From the NCBI GenBank assembly GCA_043798915.1, contig JAZDOG010000083.1:1-30410 (forward strand): a stretch of DNA of 30,410 nucleotides, in the 5' to 3' direction. Shown here piece by piece: positions 6 to 15,285 of the stretch. Origin of the DNA: Pseudomonadota bacterium (lineage in GTDB: Bacteria; UBA10199; 2-02-FULL-44-16; JAAZCA01). How positions within the stretch are numbered: position 1 is the first letter of the stretch; each line of letters opens with the position of its first letter. The notes below the pieces were generated by a model. The model saw only the letters and a program-made list of their open reading frames with translations, did no database searches and had not been told where the DNA came from. A program made the translations under genes and the position numbers.

Positions 6-279
6 CGGTTCATCCCCACGCGCGTGGGGAACACGTTATGAAATCACTTGAAGACAGGATGCCGATCGGTTCATCCCCACGCGCGTGGGGAACACGACAG
101 TTATCTCCGCTTGGCATGGAATGGCAATCGGTTCATCCCCACGCGCGTGGGGAACACCCCCTTCCGTTTGTCCCCCTTTATTTAACTAGCGGTTCATCCC
201 CACGCGCGTGGGGAACACCCCAAGGACATCAAGGCCGTGGTCAATAACGACGGTTCATCCCCACGCGCGTGGGGAACAC
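6..279 (-). CRISPR. Type I-E CRISPR array, leader-proximal end; 5 repeats and 4 complete spacers visible, array probably continues beyond the window start
   Basis: Five identical 29-bp repeats CGGTTCATCCCCACGCGCGTGGGGAACAC at 6-34, 67-95, 129-157, 190-218 and 251-279 (minus strand GTGTTCCCCACGCGCGTGGGGATGAACCG, the E. coli-type I-E repeat with CCCCAC/GTGGGG stem). Unique spacers of 32, 33, 32 and 32 bp. Adjacent to cas2. Confidence 0.99.
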
Positions 280-344
280 TCTTCCTGCATCCCACTAATC
301 TACCACGTTATTTTATCATTTTTTCGATCCACCGCGTATTTTGT
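280..344 (-). promoter_or_regulatory. CRISPR leader (short, AT-rich)
   Basis: 65-bp AT-rich non-coding segment between the cas2 stop and the first repeat, the standard I-E arrangement. Confidence 0.8.
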
Positions 345-1535
<1,191 letters not shown>

Positions 1536-1539
<4 letters not shown>

Positions 1540-2363
1540 TTCTTTCCCTTCAACCTCTTTCGAGATTCCGGTTCCTTGAGATAATTTTCTCGGCTGGAAA
1601 CCCGTCGTCCCGTTTCCCGTTCGAGCTTCGTTCGCGCATCGCCGGCAATACGACCGCCCTTGTATGCCACGACCTTGTTCTCATCGAATCCCTTTGCGTC
1701 GTGTTTGCGTGCGATCTCGGTCGTGGCCGCTTCTCCCAGCATGGAAAAAATCAGCTCCAGATCGTTCATGTGATCGCGCAGGTTCTCGCGTTCAAGGCCC
1801 TTGAATTTTTTGTGCTCGTTTGGCGTCATGCCGAAGGCGGCCTTGCTGATCTCAGCCGTGAGGATGGCGTATTCGGGTTCATCCTTGACTCCGCGATTCT
1901 TCCACTCATCGGTCAGCTCGGCGCGGACCGCGATGCCGCGCATTCGTTTCTCGATCCACGCGTCCGAATACCCCTTGGCTCGGTAGAGGGCCTTGGTTCT
2001 CTTCGTAGCAAGCTCCGGGTCCTCGATCTCCTGGACCCGTTCGTAGCCGACCTTTGCCAGCCAGCGCTTAAACGGCTCGGCTTTGGGCGAGGGGATGGAC
2101 TGAATCAAACGAAAAACTCCCTCCGTATTTGCACAATTGAGTTTTTGGGGACCGCCAGAGGTTTCAATTGAAAGGGGGGTGGCAATTTGCCCCCACCCTT
2201 TGGCAAGTTCCTCATCCCGCCTCCGCATATCCTTCAGATACCCTTGAGGATCTGCCGAATCAGTCAGGGCAGACACGACATCCGCGATCACGAACCACCA
2301 CTCTTCCTGATGGAGCGTCCTGCGAATTTTCTTACCTTTGAAGACTGCAAGATGAGTTTGCAT
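1536..2363 (-). CDS. Bro-N domain (phage antirepressor-like) protein, copy 1, inside the cas operon
   Basis: 275 aa; IRR..H.EEWWFVIADVVSALTDS...LIQSIPSPKAEPFKRWLA is the Bro-N pattern. The stop overlaps the cas1 start (ATGA, 1536-1539). Confidence 0.9.
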
Positions 2364-2364
2364 A

Positions 2365-2430
2365 TCAATACCTCATAAGCGAGAGCATGCCGCAGACAAA
2401 AGCCTTGCCGGGGCCGATGCCGGAATTTCC
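2365..2430 (-). pseudogene. Relic 3' end of a second cas6e (Gly-rich loop)
   Basis: Immediately after the cas6 TGA and in the same frame it reads GNSGIGPGKAFVCGMLSLMRY*, matching the Cas6e C-terminal G-loop (GIG..KAFG.G.LS). Confidence 0.75.
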
Positions 2431-3105
2431 TCAGGCTATCGGCATCACCGACAGGAGTCCAAGTCCCATGACCTTGCCATGGCCGATGCCGGTCTGCAGC
2501 GCAGCCTTGAACTTGTCTGGTTCGGTAACCGCAAGCACTCCGTCATACAGCACCGAAAAAACCCGGATGCCATTACCCTCATGCTGTTTCCCGCCGAGCA
2601 TCTGCTCCTGAGAAACACGCACATCGACCTGCTCCTGGTGTGTCTTTGAAAGGTCAAGGGATGCCAGTTGCGGCAGGGAAAATCCGTGCTGCTCTCCTTT
2701 GCGCTTAATCCATTTTTCCTGCTCTTCCAGCCGCAGCAGCCCCAGTCGTTTACCCTCGCGTTTCACACAAGGGTTCGCGCGCAGTCTGAAACGAAAGCGC
2801 TGTTCGACCTTGAGTGAATCGAGCTTGAGCCGCTCCTTCAGATTGATGGCTGGATCAGCCTTTGCCAACCAGCCCTGCACGCCGATGCCAGTCCAGTCCG
2901 GGATCGCCCGGCTTTGCACAAGAATGCGCGGACACCCGGTGGAGTCGGTCTCCGGCTCAAGCCTCCACAAGATTTCGCCTTCAGGGCACTTCCTGTCGGG
3001 CTCGCAGAAAGCCCGACACAGAGTGGAATGAAACTGGTAGGGATCGGAAAGGTCGCGCCTGGCCTCTCGGCAACGTGGATCAAGATGAATTCTATGCAGG
3101 AACAT
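2431..3105 (-). CDS. cas6e: Cas6e (Cse3/CasE) crRNA-processing endoribonuclease
   Basis: 224 aa; DPYQFHSTL, RFRFRLRANP and C-terminal GIGHGKVMGLGLLS. Confidence 0.96.
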   Translation of the reverse strand: MFLHRIHLDPRCREARRDLSDPYQFHSTLCRAFCEPDRKCPEGEILWRLEPETDSTGCPRILVQSRAIPDWTGIGVQGWLAKADPAINLKERLKLDSLKVEQRFRFRLRANPCVKREGKRLGLLRLEEQEKWIKRKGEQHGFSLPQLASLDLSKTHQEQVDVRVSQEQMLGGKQHEGNGIRVFSVLYDGVLAVTEPDKFKAALQTGIGHGKVMGLGLLSVMPIA

Positions 3106-3790
3106 GAATCACCTCCTGGGGAAACGGGATCCACCCCGATCGCACGAACCGCGCTCCGAAGCGCCGTTCGGCAAACGACGACAACGGCTGGTCCATCTTG
3201 AGGACACCCGATCCGTCCTCGGACTCGAAGGAGACCAGCAGTTTCTCAGGGAGTTCTTCCCATCTCCGCTGCGAGGTGATCCACGGCCACCGTGTCAAAG
3301 CATCTCGCAACGGAACATCCTGCACGCCATGCTCAAGCCAGATCGATTCGGAGGGCACATAAGATTTTCGCCCCAAGGCCAAAGGCCAGACGGGGTCGCG
3401 CAGGGCAGCGTGAATTTGTTCCAGAAAAGAACGATCATCGCATTCCAGGCCCACAAGAAACGCCGCATCGGCGATGTAGAAGCGATCGGAAACAACGCCT
3501 CCATCCTTGGCTTGGGTTCCATCAGCCTTGATGATGGTGTCGGTTGCGGCACATCCCGCTGTTTGGTAGTCCCGCTTGGGCACCCCGGGCCGGTCGTGCC
3601 GAACGCCCATCGACAGGCGAGTGAGTGGTTCCAAATACGCCCAGTTCTCGCGGTCTATTCCCAGGGCGGCAGCCAGGAGTCCGACGACGCCAGACTTGCT
3701 CGGCTCCTTCCCGGTATCGCGTTGAGCAAAGCGACTGGTGGTTCCCCACGATTGCATCGGTCCCGCCAGGCGAAGCAGTAAAGTCGGCAT
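3092..3790 (-). CDS. cas5e: Cas5e (CasD)
   Basis: 232 aa; LLLRLAGPMQSWG...PSKSGVVGLLAAALG...LALGRKS. Confidence 0.96.
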   Translation of the reverse strand: MPTLLLRLAGPMQSWGTTSRFAQRDTGKEPSKSGVVGLLAAALGIDRENWAYLEPLTRLSMGVRHDRPGVPKRDYQTAGCAATDTIIKADGTQAKDGGVVSDRFYIADAAFLVGLECDDRSFLEQIHAALRDPVWPLALGRKSYVPSESIWLEHGVQDVPLRDALTRWPWITSQRRWEELPEKLLVSFESEDGSGVLKMDQPLSSFAERRFGARFVRSGWIPFPQEVIHVPA

Positions 3791-3793
3791 GGA

Positions 3794-4954
3794 TCACCCC
3801 TGTACGGCTGAAAGGGTCTTGTCGAGAATCTCTTTCAACGCTGGCACGGCTGTTCCGTATCCATCCAAATCGGCCTTAACGAGATTGAGCACGAAAGTTT
3901 CGCCCTCACCACCAAAAGCAGACTGCAAAGCTTTGGCCTTCTTAGCAAGCTCCTCTGCCGACTTTCTGGTCAGCGACTCACCTTTTTTCGTGAACACAGC
4001 TGTCTCAAAGGCATTAGCCAGGTTACGCGGTGCTGTGTTGCGGCGCACAGATACCGCGATAAACTCCGGAGGATTGTGGGCAGCAAAGGTGTTTTGCTTG
4101 CCGGTGGGTTCAGCCACTACGAAACCTTCCAGAAAGGCTCGTAGCCCCTTGGTCGCCAGTTCCGTATCATCTTGGAGATTTGCAACCAGCTTCTCCCAAT
4201 CCACCACGGCGTAACGGTAGAAGCATGCGGAATTGAACTCCACCGTGCCCATCATGTCAGCGCCAGCGGTATCCTCGGGCTTGAGATCATCCACGGCGGT
4301 ATAGAAGTCGAATTCGCGCTCTACAGAATGGGTCGAGATGGCGTGGGCCACCTGGCAAGCAGCATTCTGGTTCTTCTCTGGCATGTCGGCCAGCATGCGT
4401 CCGAAGAGCGCCACATCCACAGCTTTGCCTCCGTTGAAAACTTTATCGAGAGCTTTCTTCAACTCGGGATCAGCATTCTGGGCGGCTTGCTTTTTGGCTT
4501 TGCCCGGTTTTTTCCCCTCGGCTGGAGCCGTATCGGATGCGACAATGGAATCCCACTTATCGTTGATAATGTTGGTTATGCTGGAGACCTCTCGTTGCCC
4601 CAAAAACAGAAGATACTCACTTTTCCCGTCATCCTTCACCGTAAGCTCCATGGACGCCAATGCCAGGCGAGCCTTGTCAGATGCTTCAGTTTCGGCCCGC
4701 CCCTTTGCGACCAGGGATTTGGTGAGGGCATCCAAAACGCGTTTGGTGCGGACAGCAACATCATCCGATGCCAGGGCGTTTTGTTCCACCAGACCCGTGA
4801 AGTGCTGGCGTACCGCTCGTTTGATACACTGGCTGGACACGCGGGCGCGACGAGTGCCACCGAAAAGAGCATCTTTCGGAGCACCCGTGTCGTCGCGGTT
4901 CAGGTTCGACGGGGCAAAGTTCTGCAAGGCATGAATCTCGATAATTGTTTTCAT
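3794..4954 (-). CDS. cas7e: Cas7 (Cse4/CasC) backbone subunit
   Basis: IHALQNFAPSNLNRDDTGAPKDALFGGTRRARVSSQ, VALFGRM and PTGKQNTFAA. Start taken at ATG 4954, which is preceded by AAGGAG. Confidence 0.97.
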   Translation of the reverse strand: MKTIIEIHALQNFAPSNLNRDDTGAPKDALFGGTRRARVSSQCIKRAVRQHFTGLVEQNALASDDVAVRTKRVLDALTKSLVAKGRAETEASDKARLALASMELTVKDDGKSEYLLFLGQREVSSITNIINDKWDSIVASDTAPAEGKKPGKAKKQAAQNADPELKKALDKVFNGGKAVDVALFGRMLADMPEKNQNAACQVAHAISTHSVEREFDFYTAVDDLKPEDTAGADMMGTVEFNSACFYRYAVVDWEKLVANLQDDTELATKGLRAFLEGFVVAEPTGKQNTFAAHNPPEFIAVSVRRNTAPRNLANAFETAVFTKKGESLTRKSAEELAKKAKALQSAFGGEGETFVLNLVKADLDGYGTAVPALKEILDKTLSAVQG

Positions 4955-4968
4955 TCGCTGATCTCCTT

Positions 4969-5469
4969 TTAGGTTTGGCATTCTGTAGCTGTTTCATGAT
5001 CCAGGTTTCGGTAGAAGTCGCGTGCCCAGGCATTCTGAGTGCGTTTCTGATCGTCGTTCCAGTACAAAAGCCCCTTCAACAAGTCGTCGAAGTCGATGGT
5101 TTGCTCCTTGAGAAGGGCAATCATCTGACGCAAGCGGTGTGGCAACTGGTCGGGATCGGCGTCAAGTAGAGTGATGAAACGCCGCTCGGTACTAGTTGAG
5201 ACGCTGGTTTCCTGATGGGTTGCAGCCGCTTTCCCTATTTTCATCTGGACACTCGATCGACCTTTCCGCCAGTGTGCGGCCCAGACACCGGCCACCAAAT
5301 AGAGCATTTGCCGTCGCCAGGAATTGTCCGCATCCTTTATAAATGGTTCAACATAGGGATACGCAGGCACGAAGGTTCCGGGATCAAATGCAAGGCTTCG
5401 TCGCAGCGCCGCTCTGACTTTGGTGTCCTTTTCGTTCACGATTTTCAGCCATTCAATGAATCCGCTCAT
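4969..5469 (-). CDS. casB: Cas11 (Cse2/CasB) small subunit
   Basis: 166 aa helical protein; RAALRRSL, ERRFITLLDAD..L..RLRQ, WARDFY. Position between cas8e and cas7. Confidence 0.93.
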   Translation of the reverse strand: MSGFIEWLKIVNEKDTKVRAALRRSLAFDPGTFVPAYPYVEPFIKDADNSWRRQMLYLVAGVWAAHWRKGRSSVQMKIGKAAATHQETSVSTSTERRFITLLDADPDQLPHRLRQMIALLKEQTIDFDDLLKGLLYWNDDQKRTQNAWARDFYRNLDHETATECQT

Positions 5470-6983
5470 GCGACCTCCTTCCCTGGTTCAAGTTTCACAA
5501 TCTCATCATTCAGCTCCTTCAGCTTGCGCCGCATCGGCCCTTCGGCTTTCACGAGGGCACGGATAGCCCAGGCATCGCCCATGGAGACTGATGCGCTATG
5601 CAGTTCCCACGCCTTCTTCAAAGTGCCTCGCACCGACTTCAACCACTGACAACGGATATTCTCGGAATCACGGTCGAGAGTGTACTCGCGCAGGATTTCG
5701 TGAAAGCGAAATTCAAGGGTGGACCAGTACCAGGCGTTCAGCGACATCTGCTTCACGAATCCAGAAATGTCTTTTTTTTCAAGTTTCCGGTCCCCTCGGC
5801 TCAACAAATTTCGCGCGAATGAACTACAGGCATCGTATAGTGATTTTTGGGCATCTTCTGCGTCTTCGAGGATATGCCGGATATCCGTCCGGATAAAACG
5901 ATCTCCCGCTAGGACTGAGGGCAAGGCGAAGCGCTCCATACGCCAGAACTCCAAATTAGCGTTTGGTGGATTATATCTCAAACCAAGCACCAGAACCGAT
6001 TCCGGCATTAAACCCACTTTATTCCCTGCCAAGCGGAGCGCATTCTGAACTGTCATGGGAGCGAGATTGCTACTGTCGGGAAGCAAGGAGTCAAAGTTCC
6101 TCCATGTTCCCCGATCCTCTTTGAACTGAACAGGTAGTATCCCGTAAGTTTCATCTGTCCTGTAGGGCTGCATCGGATCAGGATTTTTCGATGGGTTCTC
6201 AAAACCCTGTCCGGCAACAAATCTCGTAACTGCCACATCATCCGAGGGTAGTTCCTCAAGCAGGATCATCCGAGACTGCCATGAGTAGAGGTCTGCATAT
6301 CCAGATGCCATCTGCTTTGGGATGCCGAGGGGAAGCGTCTTTGGTTCACGCTCCCACAATGCTGAATCCCCGCGCATCACATCCCGATTAGGATAAGGAA
6401 CCAGACTGTAGCAGAGTGTTTCATGGAGACTCCGGCCCAATGGAATGCACATCATCGCATTCGGGGATGGCGACGGATAATAGCCTCTGCCGCCGCTGAT
6501 CGAAAAACTCATGGTTGAGAGCAGCCAACGAGCACATTCTTTCAGCTCCCGAGCGCCGGGCTTTTTGGTGTCGGTGTGATCAAAGAGAACCTTGTTCGAC
6601 GTCGCATTGTATTCAGCCGTTAGCTTGGTCCAGGGTTCGATTTCATCCTTCGGAATATTCGGATTTTGTACAAACGGATACTTCTCATCGAACAGCCAGA
6701 ACCGATCTCGCCACTTTTCCAAGTAAGCCGTGATTTTTTCACCCGGCAGCCCTGAGTTGAATAACGCCTTCGCCTGATCAATATCGGTCGGCCCTTTCAA
6801 GGCGCGATACAATACCGCAAGCAGAAAGCGATGCAGGGAGGCCACCACCAGCGGCGATGGATCTTCGATCGCCGTGATCTCTTTGGATCTCAGCATGGTA
6901 TCGCGGATACCCAGTTCGTCGCGGGTTCCATCAGGGAACCGCACAGGGATCCATTTCTCATCGATCAGGTTGAATCGGCTCAT
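5466..6983 (-). CDS. casA: Cas8e (Cse1/CasA) large subunit
   Basis: 505 aa; FNLIDEKWIPV, RFLLAVLYRA, RFWLFDEKYPF.Q. ATGA overlaps with both neighbours. Confidence 0.95.
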   Translation of the reverse strand: MSRFNLIDEKWIPVRFPDGTRDELGIRDTMLRSKEITAIEDPSPLVVASLHRFLLAVLYRALKGPTDIDQAKALFNSGLPGEKITAYLEKWRDRFWLFDEKYPFVQNPNIPKDEIEPWTKLTAEYNATSNKVLFDHTDTKKPGARELKECARWLLSTMSFSISGGRGYYPSPSPNAMMCIPLGRSLHETLCYSLVPYPNRDVMRGDSALWEREPKTLPLGIPKQMASGYADLYSWQSRMILLEELPSDDVAVTRFVAGQGFENPSKNPDPMQPYRTDETYGILPVQFKEDRGTWRNFDSLLPDSSNLAPMTVQNALRLAGNKVGLMPESVLVLGLRYNPPNANLEFWRMERFALPSVLAGDRFIRTDIRHILEDAEDAQKSLYDACSSFARNLLSRGDRKLEKKDISGFVKQMSLNAWYWSTLEFRFHEILREYTLDRDSENIRCQWLKSVRGTLKKAWELHSASVSMGDAWAIRALVKAEGPMRRKLKELNDEIVKLEPGKEVA

Positions 6984-9685
6984 CCGATCTCCTTTGATTC
7001 GTACACTACGCCCAAATCGTCATCCAGTAGCACGGTGGAGTCCTCCGTCCAACGGCCGTCTGCATTCAGGGCCATCTGGAAGCAGTTGCGCAATAGCGGA
7101 GATTTCTTCCAGCCTTCAGGCACACCCAGCGCCTTAAGTTTCCTGACCACACCTTTGCGCGAAAGGCTCACGGCTCGCAAGAACCATTGTTTGGCCTGAC
7201 CAAAATCCGGCGTTGCTTCAGGACGGAATCCGTCTTCCGCCAATAACGGTACAGCTATAATCGAGTCTGCACCAAGCCTGGTCTGGGCCATGAGGGTTCG
7301 ATGTACACCGGGTTCATCTTCGTCATAAAGAACGAATCTCTCTGGCTGATTCCACGATGCATCGTCGGGAAAACCAATGATCGCATGGTTCGCCTGCCCC
7401 CTAAGGGCGATGGTTTCTCCGTCTTCTGTCGCCATGGCATTCTCCAGCCGCACCCGCAGGGATTCCGGCACGTCCACTTGCTCTTCGTAGACCGCCTGCA
7501 CCAAGTTGTCGATATCGTCCGGCAACGTCAGGTTCTGTCTTGAGCGCAAAAGACTCCATGTGCGCAACAGAATATCCTCGCGGTACACCGCTCCCCACCA
7601 GAGAGGTTTCCCGAATGAAGGCGGCTCATCGCCAGCAAGACCTGCCACCAGCAAAATCGGTTCGGGAATGGGCCTGAAATCCCGAGAGTGCCGCCACAAG
7701 CGCCCCGCTCGCTGGAGCACAAGATCAATTGGTGCAAGGTCGGTTGCGATCAGGTCGAAGTCGAGATCAAGGCTCTGTTCAGCCACCTGAGTGGCGATGA
7801 GTATTTTTCGACCGGTCCGACCCCCTCCTTCCCCGAAGGTCTCCAATACGTGATCCTCGCGTGGCTGCCGTCGCTCGGCCGGAAAGCGAGCGTGAAAGAG
7901 AAACACTTCTGTCCCATCGGAGAGGCGCTTGCCGATACGCTGACCTTCGCGTTCCAGCGACTCACCTTCGGGGAAAAGCCGATACAAATTCTGGGCACGC
8001 TGCACGGTATTGACAAGCGCCAACCCCATTCCACCACTGACAAGATGCTCCTCCAAGGCAGAGCGCATGGCTGACAGATCCGTTGGAATCCCTCGGAGTT
8101 GCAGAGTCCGGCGGCGAGCAGGGTCGGTCCCAAAATGTGACTGTTCCACCACACCAGGATAAAAGACGGAAAGACGGGGATATTCCTTCTCTTGTTCCGG
8201 TAGCTGTGCATTTACCACTTCTGCCAACTTTCGTCGAATAGAAGGCGACAGTGTCGCTGAGAGAAGCACCACCGATGAACCCAATGCCAGGAGCCAGCGC
8301 AGCAGGTGAACCAGGAGCGTGCCCGTATAGGCATCATATGCGTGGATCTCATCGAAGACTACCACACGGTTCGCAAGGCCCCAGAGACGCACGAAGTTAT
8401 GGCGCACAGGCAAAATGGGCAGCAAGGCTTGATCCACAGTTCCCACACCGTATTCCGAGAGAAGCGCTCGTTTCTTTTGTGTAAACCATTCGCCAGCGCG
8501 GATCTCACCACCCGTTGTCGGATCGTAGATGCCCGAAAGGCGAAGATTCTGAAAAGTGTCGTTGAGGAGTGCCGCACCATGCAGCAATTGCAGATCGAGC
8601 TTTCGGTCTGCTCCTTGGAGACGCAAGAATTTGAGGGTTCGCTTGAACATGGCATTGCCGGTCGCCTTGGTTGGCAGGGCTATATATAAACCGCGATGCC
8701 CGAAATGTCGCTGCAACTCCAGATATGCTAAGAAGGCCGCCTCGGTCTTGCCTTCTCCCATCGGCGCTTCCACAAGCAGGATGGCTGGTGCCTGTAAATC
8801 AGTCAGAGCGTCGGCAACCGCCTGCTGCAATGGGCGGGGGGCGAAGCCAAAAACTTGTTCGAAAGACTTCGACGTCGAAGAAAGCGGGATTCGCTGTTCC
8901 CAACCGATGGCGTCAAGGGCTTGGTCGGCAGTGGCTCTTCGCTTATCGAACCATTCCGGCAAATTTTCACACTCATCAGGAGTGCCGAAGGAAAACCACT
9001 CTTCGTTGGATCCTATCCAGTCGGCAAAACTCGTGAGCCCCGACAACAACATGAAATCAGGGCCGGAGAGTTTTTGTCTCGTAGGTGCCCTGCCGGGTTT
9101 GAAAACATCCAGCAATGCTTCCACAAGACTTCGGCGTGCTTCAGTCCAATCATCCTTCCCCAGAGCACGCCTATCGCCCATGAGATGATCGAGGACGTTT
9201 GGAGAAGCGCGACTCCCGTGGTGACACCCCACTGCATCGGCCACCAGCGCAGTCAATTCATCTGGCCAACCCTGTTTCTGTAACATTTCTGTCAGGGCAA
9301 TCTGGCTCACGAAGGCGTGATTAATATTGATGTTAGGGCTTCGAGGTATTTGCAAGCCAGTCAAGGGGGCCTCCGGCCATTTGCACTGAAAACCCGGACA
9401 AGCCTTCCCCAGATCATGGCAGGCCATCACGAACAAGAGCCATGGTCGGGCGTCCTCCCAATCGATCCCAAGGCATGCGGCCATCCTTTTACGAGTCGAT
9501 TCTGGTTCACGCGTAAGGATGGCATCCGCACTGGCGGCCACATCCAGCATATGGAGAATAAGTGGATGCCATCCCATTTCACAGCTCTTGGCCGTCTTCG
9601 CCCAAAGATTTGTCAGCTGCCACTTATCGGGCGGATCGCTTGATAGGCTGCGGGCGTAGAAGCGTTTTGGATCGTCTGATGGCAT
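6980..9685 (-). CDS. cas3: Cas3 HD nuclease-SF2 helicase
   Basis: 901 aa; WAK..WHPL..HMLDV, HDLGK (HD), APMGEGKT (Walker A), DEIH, SAT, ATQVAEQSLDLDFD and QRAGRLWRH. Confidence 0.98.
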   Translation of the reverse strand: MPSDDPKRFYARSLSSDPPDKWQLTNLWAKTAKSCEMGWHPLILHMLDVAASADAILTREPESTRKRMAACLGIDWEDARPWLLFVMACHDLGKACPGFQCKWPEAPLTGLQIPRSPNININHAFVSQIALTEMLQKQGWPDELTALVADAVGCHHGSRASPNVLDHLMGDRRALGKDDWTEARRSLVEALLDVFKPGRAPTRQKLSGPDFMLLSGLTSFADWIGSNEEWFSFGTPDECENLPEWFDKRRATADQALDAIGWEQRIPLSSTSKSFEQVFGFAPRPLQQAVADALTDLQAPAILLVEAPMGEGKTEAAFLAYLELQRHFGHRGLYIALPTKATGNAMFKRTLKFLRLQGADRKLDLQLLHGAALLNDTFQNLRLSGIYDPTTGGEIRAGEWFTQKKRALLSEYGVGTVDQALLPILPVRHNFVRLWGLANRVVVFDEIHAYDAYTGTLLVHLLRWLLALGSSVVLLSATLSPSIRRKLAEVVNAQLPEQEKEYPRLSVFYPGVVEQSHFGTDPARRRTLQLRGIPTDLSAMRSALEEHLVSGGMGLALVNTVQRAQNLYRLFPEGESLEREGQRIGKRLSDGTEVFLFHARFPAERRQPREDHVLETFGEGGGRTGRKILIATQVAEQSLDLDFDLIATDLAPIDLVLQRAGRLWRHSRDFRPIPEPILLVAGLAGDEPPSFGKPLWWGAVYREDILLRTWSLLRSRQNLTLPDDIDNLVQAVYEEQVDVPESLRVRLENAMATEDGETIALRGQANHAIIGFPDDASWNQPERFVLYDEDEPGVHRTLMAQTRLGADSIIAVPLLAEDGFRPEATPDFGQAKQWFLRAVSLSRKGVVRKLKALGVPEGWKKSPLLRNCFQMALNADGRWTEDSTVLLDDDLGVVYESKEIG

Positions 9686-9816
9686 AGTAGCCGGCCTCTT
9701 TTGTCTCTGCCCTTTACATCAACCCTCTGTCATCCGGGGCCATATGCCGCGGACTGCCCGGCGTCCGCCCCGATCCGCTTGAGGCGGAGCACCATCCCGC
9801 CTGCCATTTCAATAAT

Positions 9817-9865
9817 CACACCCTCCGTTCACATTGCAACGGCCGATTTGGGAGTGGAAAAGGCG
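9817..9865. promoter_or_regulatory. Copy A of a duplicated palindromic motif (core CCGTTCACATTGCAACGG at 9825-9842) in the divergent cas3/helicase intergenic region
   Basis: The 18-bp core is identical to 15343-15360, with shared flanks CACACC and GGAAAAGGCG. CCGTT/AACGG inverted arms; contains TTGCAA (-35-like). The regulatory role is inferred. Confidence 0.6.
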
Positions 9866-9892
9866 CGTTGGACGCGCTATGAGGCGGCTTCA

Positions 9893-11449
9893 ATGGGCAT
9901 GAACATCAAGGACATCGAGATCAACGCGCAGTTTGCCGCGGCGCTCAATCTCATGGAGGAGGGCGGCAGGCCGCTCTTCATCACGGGGCGCGCGGGCACC
10001 GGCAAGTCGACGCTTCTCGAATATTTTCGCGCGACCACGAAACGGAAGGCCGTCATCCTCGCACCCACAGGCGTCGCGGCTGTGAACGTATCCGGCCAGA
10101 CGTTGCACTCCTTTTTTGGCTTCAGGCCCGACATCACCGTCGAGAAGGCCGCGGCTGCGGCGAAAAAAGCTGTCAAGGCCGGGCGCGCAGGCGTCTACCG
10201 GAAGATGGAGACGCTCGTTATCGACGAGATTTCGATGGTGCGCGCCGATCTCTTCGATTGCGCGGACGCGTTCCTCCGCACAGTGCGCGGGAGGCGCGCC
10301 GAGTCCTTCGGCGGCGTCCACGTCGCGATGATAGGAGATCTCTATCAGCTCCCGCCGGTCGTGACGTCTCACGAAGCCGGAATCTTTTCCAGCCACTACG
10401 CGAGCCCGTATTTCTTCGATTCGCATGCGTGCCGCGCGATGGAAGTGGAGATAGTCGAACTTGAGAAAATATACCGCCAGCGCGACGATCGCTTCATCGC
10501 CCTGCTCAACTCGATCAGGAACAACACGGCTGGCGAGGCGGAGATCGCCGCCCTCAACGAACGATGCGATCCCGATTTTGATCCGGGAGACGGGTCGTAT
10601 ATCCACCTCACGTCGCTCAACCGCGAGGCCGATGCGATAAATGAGAGGCGCCTCGATGCGCTGCCAGGAAAGGCCAGGCGTTTCGCGGCAGATGTTTCCG
10701 GCACCTTCGACGAGAAATCCTTTCCAGCTGGCAGCGAGGTGATCCTCAAATCCGGCGCGCAGGTGATGCTCCTCAGCAACGATCCGCTAGGCAGATGGGT
10801 CAACGGGACGATCGGAACGGTCAGGTCGGTGCGCGCCGATTCCGCGGATGTGAAACTGTCCGGCGGATCCATCGAAAACATCGGGCCGCACACCTGGCAG
10901 ATGTTCCGCTTCGGCCTGGACAAGGCGGGGAAGTCGATCGTCTCCGAGGCCGTAGGCAAATTCACCCAGATCCCGCTCGCGCTCGCGTGGGCGGTGACGA
11001 TCCACAAGGCCCAGGGCAAGACCTTCGACCGGGCGGTGATCGACATCGGCCGCGTGTTTGCCTGCGGGCAGACATACGTGGCCCTGAGCCGCGCCAGGTC
11101 CCTCGACGGAATAGTCCTCAAGTCCAGGCTGAAAAAGGGGCATGTCCGCGTGGACCCCAGGGTCGTCAAGTTCCTGACCTCGCACCACTATGCGATCTCC
11201 GAGAAGAAGATGCCTCTCGCGGACAAGATCAGGATGATCGAGGAGGCGATCGAAACCGGGAAGCTTCTCGAGATGTCGTATCTCAAGGCGAGCGACGTAA
11301 AATCCGCGCGCATCATAGAACCGCTGGAGGTCGGCGAAATGGAATATGCCGGCCGCGCTTTTCCCGGCCTCCGCGCGATCTGCAGGAAAAGAAACGAAGA
11401 GCGCGTATTCCGCGTCGACAGGATATTGGAGATGAAGATCCTCAGCTGA
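9893..11449 (+). CDS. Pif1/RecD-like SF1B helicase with C-terminal WYL domain
   Basis: ITGRAGTGKS, LAPTGVAA, IDEISMV, GDLYQLPPV, LAWAVTIHKAQGKT and GQTYVALSR. The C-terminal ~70 aa (IEEAI..G..LEMSY...R.IEP...LRAIC..RNEERVFRVDRI) fits WYL. Start taken at ATG 9893 or 9899 rather than the upstream TTG. Confidence 0.9.
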   Translation: MGMNIKDIEINAQFAAALNLMEEGGRPLFITGRAGTGKSTLLEYFRATTKRKAVILAPTGVAAVNVSGQTLHSFFGFRPDITVEKAAAAAKKAVKAGRAGVYRKMETLVIDEISMVRADLFDCADAFLRTVRGRRAESFGGVHVAMIGDLYQLPPVVTSHEAGIFSSHYASPYFFDSHACRAMEVEIVELEKIYRQRDDRFIALLNSIRNNTAGEAEIAALNERCDPDFDPGDGSYIHLTSLNREADAINERRLDALPGKARRFAADVSGTFDEKSFPAGSEVILKSGAQVMLLSNDPLGRWVNGTIGTVRSVRADSADVKLSGGSIENIGPHTWQMFRFGLDKAGKSIVSEAVGKFTQIPLALAWAVTIHKAQGKTFDRAVIDIGRVFACGQTYVALSRARSLDGIVLKSRLKKGHVRVDPRVVKFLTSHHYAISEKKMPLADKIRMIEEAIETGKLLEMSYLKASDVKSARIIEPLEVGEMEYAGRAFPGLRAICRKRNEERVFRVDRILEMKILS

Positions 11450-11709: not shown

Positions 11710-12564
11710 TTAATCCAGCAATAGCGCTTCCGTCAAGGTTGCCACCCAGCAATCAGGCTTTATCATTAATCTGTTGGTGTACCTGTCGTTGAAATATCGA
11801 TGGCGTTCAAGGTGTGTTGATGACGTAAAGATAAATTCCCAGCTAGCCGTTCGGGCAAACAGGCAGGCTGCAACAATATCAATTTCCCCAACCTTGTAAA
11901 ACCGCTGAGCTTTTGGATTTCCGTCAAGTGCATCAGTAGAGTTACGGGTCCTTTGGAAATCTATTGTCAGTGGGTGCTCATCAAACTGAGTCAGAAAGGG
12001 TTTTAGCTTGTTCCGGTCGACGTGCCTTATCTGCAGCATGCTTTCACTGAATTTGTAGCGTGGAAGACCAGATTCCCTCAAGTCTTGCGGCAGGAGAGCT
12101 TCGATGTGATCGATTATTTTTTTTGGACCCCCATCAAGACATCGGTCAGCTGCGCTCACATCAAGAGCACAATGTAATTCTGTGTTGGTTTTGGTAATTA
12201 GGTCACGCCATTGGTTTTGGTCTAGATAGTTGTGTCCAAGGAGAAACTTAAGATACTTTATTCTAAACTCACTCTTATTCGGATTATAAACCTGGACATT
12301 CTTACACTCGATGGCAATGTCGACATCATTTTGTAGCACGATATAGAAGTCTTTCTCAAAATCGCCACGACCGCGCCTGAACGATTTTATCCCTCCATCC
12401 TCACGATATTTCTCAAGAAGTATTTCGAGATGTTTTTCGGCGACGGCACCCCTCAAATTCATATATGCACGAGGATTTTTCTGAAGCACATCTGCAAGGT
12501 CCTTATCCGAAAGACCGGTCATTTCATACAATAACGACACGCTTCGCGGTTCACTTGCTTGCAT
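11710..12564 (-). CDS. Putative type II restriction endonuclease (PD-(D/E)xK-like)
   Basis: 284 aa, low GC. RGAVAE...DF...IECKN fits the E..D..ExK catalytic pattern. Lies downstream of an HTH gene and divergent from a C5 MTase. Confidence 0.65.
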   Translation of the reverse strand: MQASEPRSVSLLYEMTGLSDKDLADVLQKNPRAYMNLRGAVAEKHLEILLEKYREDGGIKSFRRGRGDFEKDFYIVLQNDVDIAIECKNVQVYNPNKSEFRIKYLKFLLGHNYLDQNQWRDLITKTNTELHCALDVSAADRCLDGGPKKIIDHIEALLPQDLRESGLPRYKFSESMLQIRHVDRNKLKPFLTQFDEHPLTIDFQRTRNSTDALDGNPKAQRFYKVGEIDIVAACLFARTASWEFIFTSSTHLERHRYFNDRYTNRLMIKPDCWVATLTEALLLD

Positions 12565-12819: not shown

Positions 12820-12875
12820 CACTAATTATGTTCATATTGTGCACGAATCTCTTAACTTCTGCACGGGGAATTGTC

Positions 12876-14045
12876 ATGAAAAAAAGAAAAGTGATTAGCC
12901 TTTATACTGGCGCAGGTGGGCTTGATTACGGTCTTGAGGCTGCGGGTTTTGAAGTAGGTGTCGCTGTGGAAATGGATTCATTTTGCTGTAAGACAATTAG
13001 ACAAAATCGAGACTGGGCTCTAATCGAAAGTAAGATCGAAGATGTTGATTCAAAGCGTTTGCTTAAGCATGGAAACTTGAAGCTAGGCGAAGCAGATATC
13101 TTAGTTGGCGGTCCGCCTTGTCAGCCGTTCTCAAAATCCAGCTATTGGGTAAATGGTGACACGAAACGTTTGGATGATCCGCGGGCCAACACTTTGTCGC
13201 AATATATGAGAGTGTTAAATGACACACTCCCCAAGGCTTTCCTGCTAGAGAATGTCTTTGGATTGGCTTATAAGAATAAAGATGAGGGGCTCCAGTATCT
13301 ATTGGATGAGATCAAGGCGATCAATAAGAGGAGCGGTGTAAATTACTCAATCACTTGGAAGGTAATAAATGCGGCGGACTATGGGGTGCCGCAGATACGA
13401 GAACGCGTGTTCATGATTGGGCACCGAGAAGGAAAGGAATTTATATTTCCGCAGCCAAGGTTCAGGTCTCGCGATTCAGAACAAACGCTTTTTGATTCAA
13501 TTACAGAACCCTATCGAACTGCGTGGGATGCAGTTGGAGATCTTGATAATGATAGTGGTGCGATATCCGCGTGTGCCGTCGGTGGAAAATGGTCCGGTCT
13601 GTTGCCCACAATTCCTCCCGGAATGAATTATCTATGGCATTCGGAGAGGGGTGAAGGAAACCCAATATTTAAATGGCGGTCGAGATATTGGTGCTTTCTT
13701 TTAAAACTACATCCTGAATTGCCCAGCTGGACAATTCAAGCTCAACCAGGATCTGCAATCGGCCCCTTTCATTGGAATAACCGGCGGCTGACCATGCGAG
13801 AGATGGCTAGAATACAGACATTCCCGGATGATATTGAGATTATGGGAGGTATATCGCAGGTCCAAAAACAGTTGGGGAATGCGGTTCCATCAGCAATAGG
13901 AGAACTCCTTGGGAAGGAGATCCGAAAGCAGTTGTTTAAAGATGGCAATATTGATTCCGGGCAAACGCTTATACCACCAAAACGTAAGGGAATCCCCAAG
14001 ATTGATTACAAGAAATCCGTACCGCGAAAATACCTATTAGGGTGA
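12876..14045 (+). CDS. DNA (cytosine-5)-methyltransferase
   Basis: Motif I SLYTGAGG, IV GGPPCQPFS, VI ENV, VIII QIRERVF, IX R.LT.RE..RIQTFPD, X QLGNAVP. Start taken at ATG 12876 after GGGGA. Confidence 0.96.
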   Translation: MKKRKVISLYTGAGGLDYGLEAAGFEVGVAVEMDSFCCKTIRQNRDWALIESKIEDVDSKRLLKHGNLKLGEADILVGGPPCQPFSKSSYWVNGDTKRLDDPRANTLSQYMRVLNDTLPKAFLLENVFGLAYKNKDEGLQYLLDEIKAINKRSGVNYSITWKVINAADYGVPQIRERVFMIGHREGKEFIFPQPRFRSRDSEQTLFDSITEPYRTAWDAVGDLDNDSGAISACAVGGKWSGLLPTIPPGMNYLWHSERGEGNPIFKWRSRYWCFLLKLHPELPSWTIQAQPGSAIGPFHWNNRRLTMREMARIQTFPDDIEIMGGISQVQKQLGNAVPSAIGELLGKEIRKQLFKDGNIDSGQTLIPPKRKGIPKIDYKKSVPRKYLLG

Positions 14046-14457: not shown

Positions 14458-15285
14458 TTACTTCTTTCCCTTCAGCCTCTTTCGGCCTTCCGGTTCCATT
14501 AGATAATTTTCACGGTTTGAGACCCGCTTTCCCGTCTCTTTCTCGAGTTTTGATCTGGCATCGCCGGCGATGCGGCCGCCCTTGTGTGCCGCAATCTTGC
14601 TTTCAGTTAGTCCCTGCGCGTCATGCTGCCGTGTGATTTCGGTCGTGGCCGCCTCGCCCAGCATAGAAAAGATCAATTCCAGATCATTCATGTGGTCACG
14701 CAGGTTTTCCCGCTCCAACCCCTTGAATTTTTTGTATTCGCCTGGCGTCATGCCGAAGGCGGCCTTGCTGATCTCAGCCGTGAGGATGGCGTATTCCGGC
14801 TCATCTTTGACTCCGCGATTCTTCCACTCATCGGTCAGCTCGGCGCGGACCGCGATACCGCGCATTCGTTTCTCGATCCATACGTCCGAATATCCCTTGG
14901 CCCTATAGAGGGCCTTGGTCCTCTTCGTTGCCAGCTCCGGATTTTCAATCTCCTGCACCCGTTCGTAGCCGACCTTCGCCAGCCAGCGCTTGAACGGTTC
15001 GGCCTTGGGGGAGGGGATGGACTGGATGATGCGGAAGATGCCTTCAGTGTTGGCACAGAGCATGTTCTGCGCTCCTCCGGGCGTATCAATGGAAAGGATA
15101 TGTACAATTTGTACCCACCCTTTTGCTAGTTCCGGATCGCGCTGTTTCATGCGCTGGATATATTGTTTTGGATCCCTTGAATCTATCAATGCCAAAACGA
15201 CATCTTCGATGACGAACCACCACACATTATTATGAAGTGTCCGGCGAATATTATTCCCCTTAAAGACTGCAAGATGGGTTTCCAT
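14458..15285 (-). CDS. Bro-N domain protein, copy 2
   Basis: 275 aa, ungapped with copy 1; about 82% identical by manual count (49 differences). Confidence 0.9.
   Translation of the reverse strand: METHLAVFKGNNIRRTLHNNVWWFVIEDVVLALIDSRDPKQYIQRMKQRDPELAKGWVQIVHILSIDTPGGAQNMLCANTEGIFRIIQSIPSPKAEPFKRWLAKVGYERVQEIENPELATKRTKALYRAKGYSDVWIEKRMRGIAVRAELTDEWKNRGVKDEPEYAILTAEISKAAFGMTPGEYKKFKGLERENLRDHMNDLELIFSMLGEAATTEITRQHDAQGLTESKIAAHKGGRIAGDARSKLEKETGKRVSNRENYLMEPEGRKRLKGKK

Follow-up and report, generated by a model that had tools for sequence, protein, structure and literature searches.

Recent predictions of new phage defences have drawn on genes nested within restriction, BREX, and DISARM operons (Payne et al., bioRxiv 10.1101/2024.01.29.577857). 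The resulting PDC ("phage defence candidate") models derive from families that sit inside BREX, DISARM, and type I restriction-modification (R-M) operons and denote candidates only (Payne, Hughes, Fineran, & Jackson, bioRxiv 10.1101/2024.01.29.577857). A later survey counts PDC-S13 as one of the widespread candidates, most of which still await validation (PMC12988326). A PDC-S13 gene lies within positions 1 to 30,410 of contig JAZDOG010000083.1 (forward strand; assembly GCA_043798915.1, Pseudomonadota bacterium), a stretch called the window here; all coordinates refer to it. The gene, Bro hereafter, encodes 275 residues and, within a type I-E CRISPR-Cas operon, occupies a slot flanked by cas6e and cas1. 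Sequence models assign its product an N-terminal Bro-N DNA-binding domain and a helical C-terminal domain common with Escherichia coli DinD. The reading preferred here, held with slightly more belief than doubt, is that Bro is an embedded defence-type passenger of a slot whose contents are exchanged, serving as an independent second-line or auxiliary defence rather than as a subunit of the adaptation machinery.

Comparison with described systems locates both the familiar and the unusual features of this gene. As expected of PDC-S13, it matches the family's hidden Markov model over its full length and lies as a lone, co-oriented gene inside a multi-gene defence operon, and like the rest of the family it is a candidate. 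Its host differs: the main text of the preprint names BREX, DISARM, and type I R-M, whereas the window gene sits at the boundary between interference and adaptation genes of a I-E CRISPR-Cas operon. PrrC offers a parallel, for its defence gene is likewise housed inside another defence system, the EcoprrI type I R-M operon, and it is the paradigm of backup firing when the host system is inhibited (Payne et al., bioRxiv 10.1101/2024.01.29.577857). PrrC is an ABC-ATPase/nuclease with a known trigger; no enzymatic motif was detected in the window protein.

Two DNA-damage proteins offer further comparisons. DdrC of Deinococcus radiodurans (PDB 7qvb, 7udi, 8u0g, 8u1j) forms homodimers, which bind single- or double-strand breaks in pairs (PMC11347143). 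It combines an N-terminal winged-helix-like domain with a C-terminal helical bundle, a two-domain plan to which the predicted fold of the window protein conforms, and dimerization is also predicted for the window protein, yet the two lack a sequence match, and DdrC is a radiation-induced repair factor that is not embedded in an operon. DinD is SOS-inducible and is named with RecX as ensuring the removal of RecA filaments (PMC4849656). E. coli DinD is nearly equal in length (274 against 275 residues), has the C-terminal domain in common, and is also filed under PDC-S13, but its N-terminal domain is of the ORF6N/RhuM type rather than Bro-N, and the window protein scores far below the DinD equivalog cut-off.

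Non-core genes in or beside cas operons are themselves familiar. Cas4, the DnaQ domain fused to Cas2 in some I-E systems, and IHF are adaptation accessories, and CreTA is embedded in I-B cas operons; these either keep a stable association with a subtype or protect particular cas genes. The window gene, unlike them, holds a slot that many other genes fill interchangeably.

The PDC-S13 family and the guilt-by-embedding idea for genes in defence operons are already known. A literature search on PDC-S13 returned no papers, and at the level of titles and abstract openings, searches combining Bro-N, CRISPR, and Cas1 returned none on a cas-embedded Bro-N gene and searches on RhuM, CRISPR, Fic, and DUF1016 returned nothing relevant. 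CRISPR, cas1, Bro-N, and DinD are absent from the main text of the Payne et al. preprint, whose supplementary tables may list such genes. Bro-N, antirepressor, Fic, RhuM, and DUF1016 are unmentioned in PMC6967390 and in the main text of the Shmakov et al. 2018 preprint, whose supplementary tables may again list them. The main texts searched contain no account of I-E or I-C operons as hosts, of a boundary slot with fast cargo exchange, of module-swap scars, or of a structural link to DdrC and DinD.

Cargo turnover between cas6e and cas1

A first-pass annotation, made from the letters of the window, proposed that the gene is a retained CRISPR accessory, tightly coupled on both sides, that regulates cas expression or modulates adaptation, and it suggested a survey of I-E loci. 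A search of metagenome contigs with the window's Cas1 recovered 80 I-E loci with Cas1 proteins 77-87% identical to it. The slot is evaluable in 69 of them; the other 11 have too little upstream DNA. Bro is present in 24 of the 69, directly before cas1 (16 loci), followed by Fic (4), together with a short open reading frame (ORF) (1), or as a remnant (3). Other identified cargo fills 20 slots: Fic (5), RhuM (5), a YhcG/DUF1016 nuclease (5), a YhcG fragment (1), ORF6N (1), a 23S rRNA intervening-sequence (IVS) protein, or IVP (2), and MazEF (1). ORFs without a family occupy seven more, and in 18 loci the slot is empty, with the last interference gene abutting cas1. The survey thus bears out the recurrence of the family at this site, and it also finds the site holding unrelated cargo, unfamiliar ORFs, or nothing, which speaks against a dedicated regulator or adaptation accessory.

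The other cargo families in PADLOC are SoFic, PDC-S02, PDC-S04, and PDC-S05. The slots of I-C loci hold the same guild, with an IVS protein in one locus (L197) and YoeB plus a RhuM-N/Fic protein (PDC-S23) in another (L226). Genes for the IVS protein, a four-helix bundle described as the "23S rRNA intervening-sequence protein", lie in cas slots or beside Bro in L119, L121, L197, and L069; PADLOC has no model for them.

Closely related Cas1 proteins are accompanied by different cargo. One starred clade of the Cas1 tree, with end branches of at most 0.005 (L141, L144, L148), contains ORF6N, Bro, and Bro remnants plus ORF6N, and a second (L183, L186, L185, L195) contains four different cargo states. 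Bro presence needs 15 changes on this tree. Judged by these comparisons, the cargo in the slot changes faster than Cas1 diverges. Bro 3' remnants stand directly before cas1, behind Fic in L185 and behind ORF6N in L148, with tiny remnants in L141 and L183; newer cargo has therefore inserted into an older Bro gene. Bro has also decayed in place in L148, L155, and L185. Because Bro is the commonest occupant and is found on the deepest Cas1 branches (L046, L045, L036), it may be the ancestral one. Both the different cargo beside near-identical Cas1 proteins and the Bro remnants behind other cargo further undercut the proposed accessory status.

A dedicated I-E accessory would be stably present in its Cas1 lineage, where Bro is found in 24 of 69 loci, and its phylogeny would follow that of Cas1. 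Approximately unbiased (AU) tests on 25 I-E rows reject the Cas1 clade L134/L136/L137/L138 as a Bro clade (p-AU 0.005), reject L154/L194 (p-AU 0.0003), and do not reject L051/L103 (p 0.59), with the p-values weakened by the fact that the groups were picked after the trees had been seen. The Bro and Cas1 trees accordingly disagree in two of the three tests, and the congruence that was suggested as a test of the accessory proposal fails there.

The junctions of the slot were originally read as signs of coupling. As a description this reading is accurate: a 275-residue non-cas gene with a Bro-N domain lies between cas6e and cas1, its TGA (1538-1536) overlaps the cas1 ATG (1539-1537) as ATGA, and its own ATG follows by one nucleotide the stop of a relic cas6e tail in which GAGG, 7 nt upstream of the ATG, is a likely ribosome-binding site. 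The interpretation is a different matter, since neither junction is peculiar to Bro.

The intact cas6e stop is at 2433-2431, and a second, out-of-context cas6e-like tail follows it at about 2424-2365, ending in TGA one base before the Bro ATG. The relic resembles the genuine cas6e tails of L046, L103, and L106. A relic of the other cas6e type follows the intact stop in every locus with a window-type cas6e, whatever the cargo: with Bro in L051, L122, L134, L144, and L172 (decayed in L165), with MazEF in L176, and, in a shorter form, with YhcG in L166/L167 and L170. Because it occurs irrespective of cargo, the relic is the scar of a swap in which a whole interference module (cas3-cas6e) was joined to an older adaptation module, and it was made neither by nor for Bro. 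The swap breakpoint falls some 18 codons short of where the old cas6e ended. Sequence identities among the Cas proteins agree with such a swap: in five of six I-E loci from genomes, Cas1 is about 80% identical to the window's and Cas7, Cas5, and Cas6e only 25-39%, and the interference genes of L051 are 58-86% identical to the window's (cas6e 74%, cas5 77%). Relic cas6e tails thus record whole-module swapping in the evolution of type I-E systems.

The overlap at the other end likewise accompanies different genes. In the window's lineage cas1 begins ATGAC, and the upstream gene that ends on its TGA is Bro in 12 loci, YhcG in L164, L166, and L170, RhuM in L186, and cas6e itself in L156. Because different upstream genes share it, the ATGA overlap belongs to the cas1 start. 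The Bro-cas1 junction is ATGA or 2-38 nt in all six genome I-E loci; such tight packing fits co-translation but characterizes the site, not Bro. Within positions 200-3400, neither promoter-like sites (1 against 1.6 expected) nor terminator-like sites (3 against 3.3 expected) exceed chance. No signal of its own stands out, and Bro would share a transcript with the cas genes, its translation directly preceding that of cas1.

Domains and predicted structure

The family assignment is supported by several model libraries. Pfam Bro-N (PF02498) matches residues 13-104 (E 4.4e-13; 50.1 bits against a gathering cut-off of 25.6) over profile positions 2-92 of 96. The PADLOC model PDLC04920 (PDC-S13) matches at full length (E 1.6e-113), with residues 3-270 on model positions 5-275 of 286, and residues 147-234 also match the sister model PDLC04919 (E 1e-5). 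The whole protein matches phrog_15286 (E 1.5e-85), a PHROG with function unknown, and anti-repressor PHROGs match the N-terminal domain only (E 7e-10 and weaker). Pfam finds neither an Ant nor a KilAC C-terminal domain in the window protein.

Conservation within the family is high. An alignment of 79 members (A1) has 41 invariant columns and a mean column identity of 59%, which marks strong purifying selection. Across 156 distinct coding sequences, 9-codon windows show no suppressed synonymous change; relative codon entropy in these windows is mostly 0.8-1.0, with single-column dips to 0.54 around codons 58-69. Since synonymous change is not suppressed, the gene contains no family-wide nucleic-acid element.

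An AlphaFold2 model built from 79 family members has a mean predicted local distance difference test score (pLDDT) of 86.8. The top Foldseek matches to this model are chains of D. radiodurans DdrC (E 4e-7, best 4.1e-7, to 4e-6; probability 1.00), and the next match is at E 0.3. VIA-align places 203 of 214 residues at full length against 7qvb_A (Z 12.5, root-mean-square deviation (rmsd) 12.0) and 93 residues against the DdrC N-terminal domain alone (Z 8.0, rmsd 4.2). The match is given weight because it is isolated and spans both domains in order, and the predicted fold of the Bro-N/DinD-C protein resembles that of DdrC. The main text of the DdrC paper makes no mention of Bro-N or DinD (PMC11347143). 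The only matches in a profile search of PDB sequences are to flavivirus NS5 (E 0.011-0.037) and are taken as chance.

DdrC, described as unique to Deinococcus, would by this model have the fold of a widespread Bro-N/DinD-C family. R14 and R85 of the window protein are invariant in the 79 members of alignment A1. Arg-14 and Arg-81 of DdrC are predicted nick contacts (PMC11347143), a comparison made by residue number only.

The protein is also predicted to form a symmetric dimer. The homodimer model scores 0.66, against 0.00 for the best of three controls, a prediction to which solved DdrC dimers may contribute; the mark is reached by 20 of 30 proteins solved as one-chain pairs and by 1 of 23 solved as single chains. 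Contact agreement among runs is at least 65%, partner pLDDT is at least 81, and the modelled interface is symmetric and involves residues 49-130.

The relationship to DinD rests on matches to PADLOC models rather than on pairwise tests. DinD of E. coli K-12 (L237:7761-8585) matches PDLC04919 (PDC-S13) at E 2.4e-121, and its residues 122-250 match the window family's own model, PDLC04920, at E 2.2e-16. The N-terminal domain of DinD matches ORF6N/RhuM-type models and not Bro-N. Orthology was considered and set aside, as the window protein scores 17.8 bits on the NCBIfam DinD equivalog (NF008573), for which the cut-off is 242. By these model matches, the window protein is not a DinD orthologue, yet it has the C-terminal domain of DinD. 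DinD also matches the first 267 of 717 positions of a PADLOC model named "Type I specificity subunit", which implies that DinD-like domains are fused to HsdS somewhere.

Taken with the DdrC fold match, the DinD domain would tie a very widespread candidate defence family to two DNA-damage proteins. An entry of "unknown function" could in this way be exchanged for a simple biochemical hypothesis, the binding of broken DNA.

Distribution of the family and competing explanations

More than 591 relatives are found in public genomes. The best 80 of these share 65-82% identity with the window protein and represent numerous bacterial phyla along with some archaea. A cas gene is the immediate neighbour in 15 of the 80: six loci are type I-E (cas6e or cas5, then Bro, then cas1), five have Cas7 (PF05107), then Bro, then Cas4, three are Cas4-Bro-Cas1, and one is Cas4-Bro. 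R-M genes flank Bro in six of the 80, namely type III mod and res (L072, L110), HsdS (L061), Eco57I-type, or type IIG, enzymes (L042, L115), and an HsdR_N/TaqI_C protein (L059). Seven of the 80 adjoin RhuM, Fic, DUF1016, KilA-N, IVS-protein, or toxin genes, and some copies sit between housekeeping genes. In four Omnitrophota loci (L054, L066, L073, L104) the family lies directly downstream of a tadA-like deaminase gene amid housekeeping genes, a conserved non-defence position in that group.

This list of 80 is ranked by likeness to a cas-embedded query and hence biased, so an even sample of 401 genomes from the phylum of L036 was drawn. The family occurs at E 1e-30 or better in 48 of these genomes, at 68 places, 44 of them near full length; 42 of the 44 were examined, the other two being at contig ends. 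CRISPR linkage is seen in 15 of the 42 copies, all in type I-E or I-C loci. Eleven lie between the interference genes and cas4/cas1, and four lie immediately upstream of a whole I-C operon (Bro, cas3, cas5d, Csd1, cas7, cas4, cas1). The cas-linked copies are confined to module boundaries: before cas4/cas1, between cas4 and cas1, or before cas3. A cas locus makes up about 0.3% of such a genome, a rough estimate rather than a test, and the relatives are not independent; the CRISPR linkage is nonetheless far above random placement.

Genomes related to the window's present a different picture. The family matches 31 of 61 of them, patchily and often in several copies, with many partial matches, fragments, and copies with stop codons, and a cas gene neighbours Bro (1.5-kb flanks) in none of 29 loci.

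A tree of 119 family members organizes these contexts. The 34 cas-linked rows need 10 state changes, and the group outside cas and R-M contexts needs 15, against a mean of 33.7 over shuffles, with 0 of 500 shuffles as low; 18 of the 25 I-E rows in this tree derive from the Cas1-centred search. The first-pass view that Bro is no fresh random insertion is sustained by the 15 of 80 and 15 of 42 cas-adjoining copies and by their clustering on the tree.

Two I-C loci carry unusual arrangements. In L233 (G453:C7) a Cas7 fragment is followed by Bro and then a complete type I-C operon, and in L226 (G316:C12) two cas4 genes flank Bro and three further cargo genes. Both look like scars of module swaps or duplications in I-C loci.

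The preferred reading joins these observations as follows. Bro would belong to a guild of small defence-type genes that transfer promiscuously and lodge in defence operons, a guild comprising PDC-S13, Fic, RhuM, YhcG/DUF1016, ORF6N, the IVS protein, and toxin-antitoxin pairs. The guild also settles in I-E and I-C operons, and there at one precise place, the swap-slot at the interference/adaptation boundary, where turnover outpaces Cas1 divergence. By analogy with DdrC, the protein might act alone, as a dimer, on broken or nicked DNA; alternatively, it might act on recombination intermediates, as DinD does on RecA filaments. Its function would be a second-line or auxiliary defence directed at DNA cut by Cas3 or by restriction, or at entering linear phage DNA. 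Its position would confer co-regulation and co-transfer with the host system, and the gene would be dispensable for the function of Cas1-Cas2. The slot also offers a well-defined natural test bed that is easy to clone, since the same operon is available with different cargo or none, for asking whether embedded genes back up, tune, or ride.

Several results pull away from this reading. The DdrC likeness holds at the level of fold only, with 12-14% identity and a high full-length rmsd; VIA-align cautions that helical folds can reach Z near 13 by chance, and the profile search of PDB sequences gave no DdrC match. The sequence likeness to DinD is confined to the C-terminal domain, and pairwise comparison with DinD is weak (hhalign probability 3.4%, E 0.013; blastp E 0.055). 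The CRISPR linkage of 15 of 42 copies is a far stronger association than a pure genomic-sink idea predicts, and CRISPR linkage is seen in 14 of the 19 sample copies whose identity to the window protein is 63% or more. On the family tree, starred clades mix I-E, I-C, and cas4-cas1 rows, separately from 55 rows without cas context that form a nested clade of their own, and this clustering of cas-linked copies fits a CRISPR-specific role for the subclade.

Such a role is the content of the strongest alternative, in which Bro is a true type I CRISPR accessory: a DdrC/DinD-like dimer acting on the ends or nicks left by Cas3 (or RecBCD), and either feeding primed acquisition by Cas1-Cas2(-Cas4) or blocking RecA-dependent repair. 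That I-E and I-C loci alike always have Bro either bordering the adaptation genes or immediately ahead of cas3 is what this alternative expects, as are the share of CRISPR-linked copies in the even sample, the clustering of cas-linked copies that move between I-E and I-C contexts, the close junction with cas1 in six of six genome I-E loci, the standing of Bro as commonest and deepest occupant, and a predicted fold that is that of a DNA-break sensor. The same Cas1 lineage, however, does without cargo in 18 of 69 loci and carries unrelated cargo in 20, near-identical Cas1 proteins are paired with different cargo, and Bro has decayed in place in three loci. Two Cas1 clades are rejected as Bro clades, albeit with groups chosen post hoc, and the family is also embedded in R-M operons and amid housekeeping genes. 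A true accessory is therefore judged unlikely, while deserving more credit than the explanations that follow. Equally doubtful is a bolder, combined proposition, in which the Bro-N/DinD-C subclade is an unrecognised accessory of Cas3-based I-E/I-C systems, acting as a nick or end sensor, and the module boundary is a dedicated docking slot for interchangeable, co-regulated second-line defence genes.

Bro might instead be a selfish hitchhiker without benefit to its host, tolerated in defence operons because these accept insertions (the genomic sink idea). The patchy, multi-copy, and often broken copies in relatives of the window genome have this character, as do the 65-82% identity across very distant phyla, archaea included, among the best 80 relatives, the copies amid housekeeping genes, and the replacement and decay within the slot. 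Strong purifying selection (the 41 invariant columns) is not what a useless gene would show, no mobility gene of its own or flanking repeat is seen, and the enrichment in DNA-targeting defence loci lies far beyond random tolerance. SoFic, present by its PADLOC name among the companion cargo, has reported defence activity, which also counts against this explanation. This explanation is somewhat less credible than the accessory and has only a small share of our belief.

The regulatory role proposed at the outset, in which Bro is an antirepressor-like transcription regulator of cas expression, draws on its Bro-N DNA-binding domain and on the anti-repressor PHROGs that match this domain. Those Ant families match the N-terminal domain only, the full-length match being a PHROG of unknown function. 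The slot-mates of Bro include enzymes (Fic, a PD-(D/E)xK nuclease, MazF) unable to replace a regulator, and a likelier candidate for that task is the helicase gene with a WYL domain next to cas3. The family is, moreover, nearly absent from phages: 4 of 50,697 phage records match, none above 46% identity, and 21 of 72,556 plasmid records do; on these counts the family does not belong to phages. Control of cas expression by Bro is accordingly improbable. A phage antirepressor of the Ant/Bro kind was rejected as an identity for the gene on the same phage count and on the lack of an Ant or KilAC C-terminal domain in Pfam. Least credible of all is an anti-CRISPR or other anti-defence gene that a phage or mobile element left behind, which the label "phage antirepressor" in some records (for example H5) might suggest but which sits poorly with the scarcity of phage and plasmid matches, with a gene on the same strand as, and in an operon with, intact cas genes and an array, and with its recurrence in many intact cas loci.

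Other features of the window

The I-E operon is complete in the window by Pfam and NCBIfam (Table 1). Tandem Repeats Finder, run on positions 1-400, left the CRISPR array undetected; an exact-repeat search did detect it. I-E Cas1 is found in 3 of 92 other genomes of the window's phylum and in 2 of 60 relatives of the window genome, at 67-69% identity in both sets. Because I-E Cas1 is so rare in this phylum, the window's CRISPR-Cas locus was probably acquired horizontally.

Table 1. Features of the window by position, strand, and basis of assignment
Feature	Position	Strand	Basis or remark
CRISPR array, five exact 29-nt repeats, cut by window end	6-279	.	exact-repeat search, 0 expected by chance
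cas2 (type I-E)	345-635	-	PF09707 E 5e-37
cas1 (type I-E)	616-1539	-	TIGR03638 (cas1_ECOLI) E 1.1e-115
ATGA overlap, Bro stop / cas1 start	1536-1539	-	sequence reading
Bro (Bro-N + DinD-C; PADLOC PDC-S13), 275 aa	1536-2363	-	ORF; slot between cas6e and cas1
Relic cas6e C-terminal tail, about 19 codons (18-20) plus stop	2365-2424	-	sequence reading
GAGG, likely ribosome-binding site	2371-2374	-	7 nt upstream of Bro ATG
cas6e, intact	2431-3105	-	PF08798 E 2.4e-51; TIGR01907 (casE) E 1.8e-21
cas5	3092-3790	-	Pfam
cas7	3794-4981	-	Pfam
cse2	4969-5469	-	Pfam
cse1	5466-6983	-	Pfam
cas3	6980-9685	-	Pfam
Interference module, cas3 to cas5	3092-9685	-	Pfam
PIF1-type helicase with C-terminal WYL domain	9701-11449	+	divergent, right beside cas3 start
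284-aa ORF without family	11710-12564	-	ORF
C5 cytosine DNA methylase	12828-14045	+	beside the 284-aa ORF
Second PDC-S13 paralogue	14458-15285	-	82% aa identity to Bro

The genes beyond cas3 include two candidates for roles of their own. The PIF1/WYL helicase gene may regulate the CRISPR locus. WYL models in PADLOC are labelled CRISPR-associated signalling. The C5 methylase and the 284-aa ORF may form a small restriction-modification pair.

The window's second PDC-S13 gene is 82% identical to Bro over 275 residues without a gap, and a third copy, on another contig of the same genome, is 65% identical. The first-pass annotation had contrasted Bro with this paralogue as a free copy. The AAG TAA ending cited in support is indeed there, but the gene is hardly free: it shares the strand of cas3 and stands just 4.8 kb upstream of that gene, with the C5 methylase, 284-aa ORF, and PIF1/WYL helicase genes between. 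This position recalls the "before cas3" placement of the family in I-C loci, and on the 119-member tree the paralogue and the cas-embedded copies share one starred clade.

The two window copies are mosaic. Their 3' two-thirds are mutually nearest in DNA; over codons 93-184 they are 90.6% identical at the DNA level and are mutual best matches, and codons 1-92 of each are closer to copies in other genomes. Because identity is mosaic and synonymous change is not suppressed across the 156 coding sequences, this pattern suggests gene conversion within the genome between the two window copies rather than a conserved nucleic-acid element.

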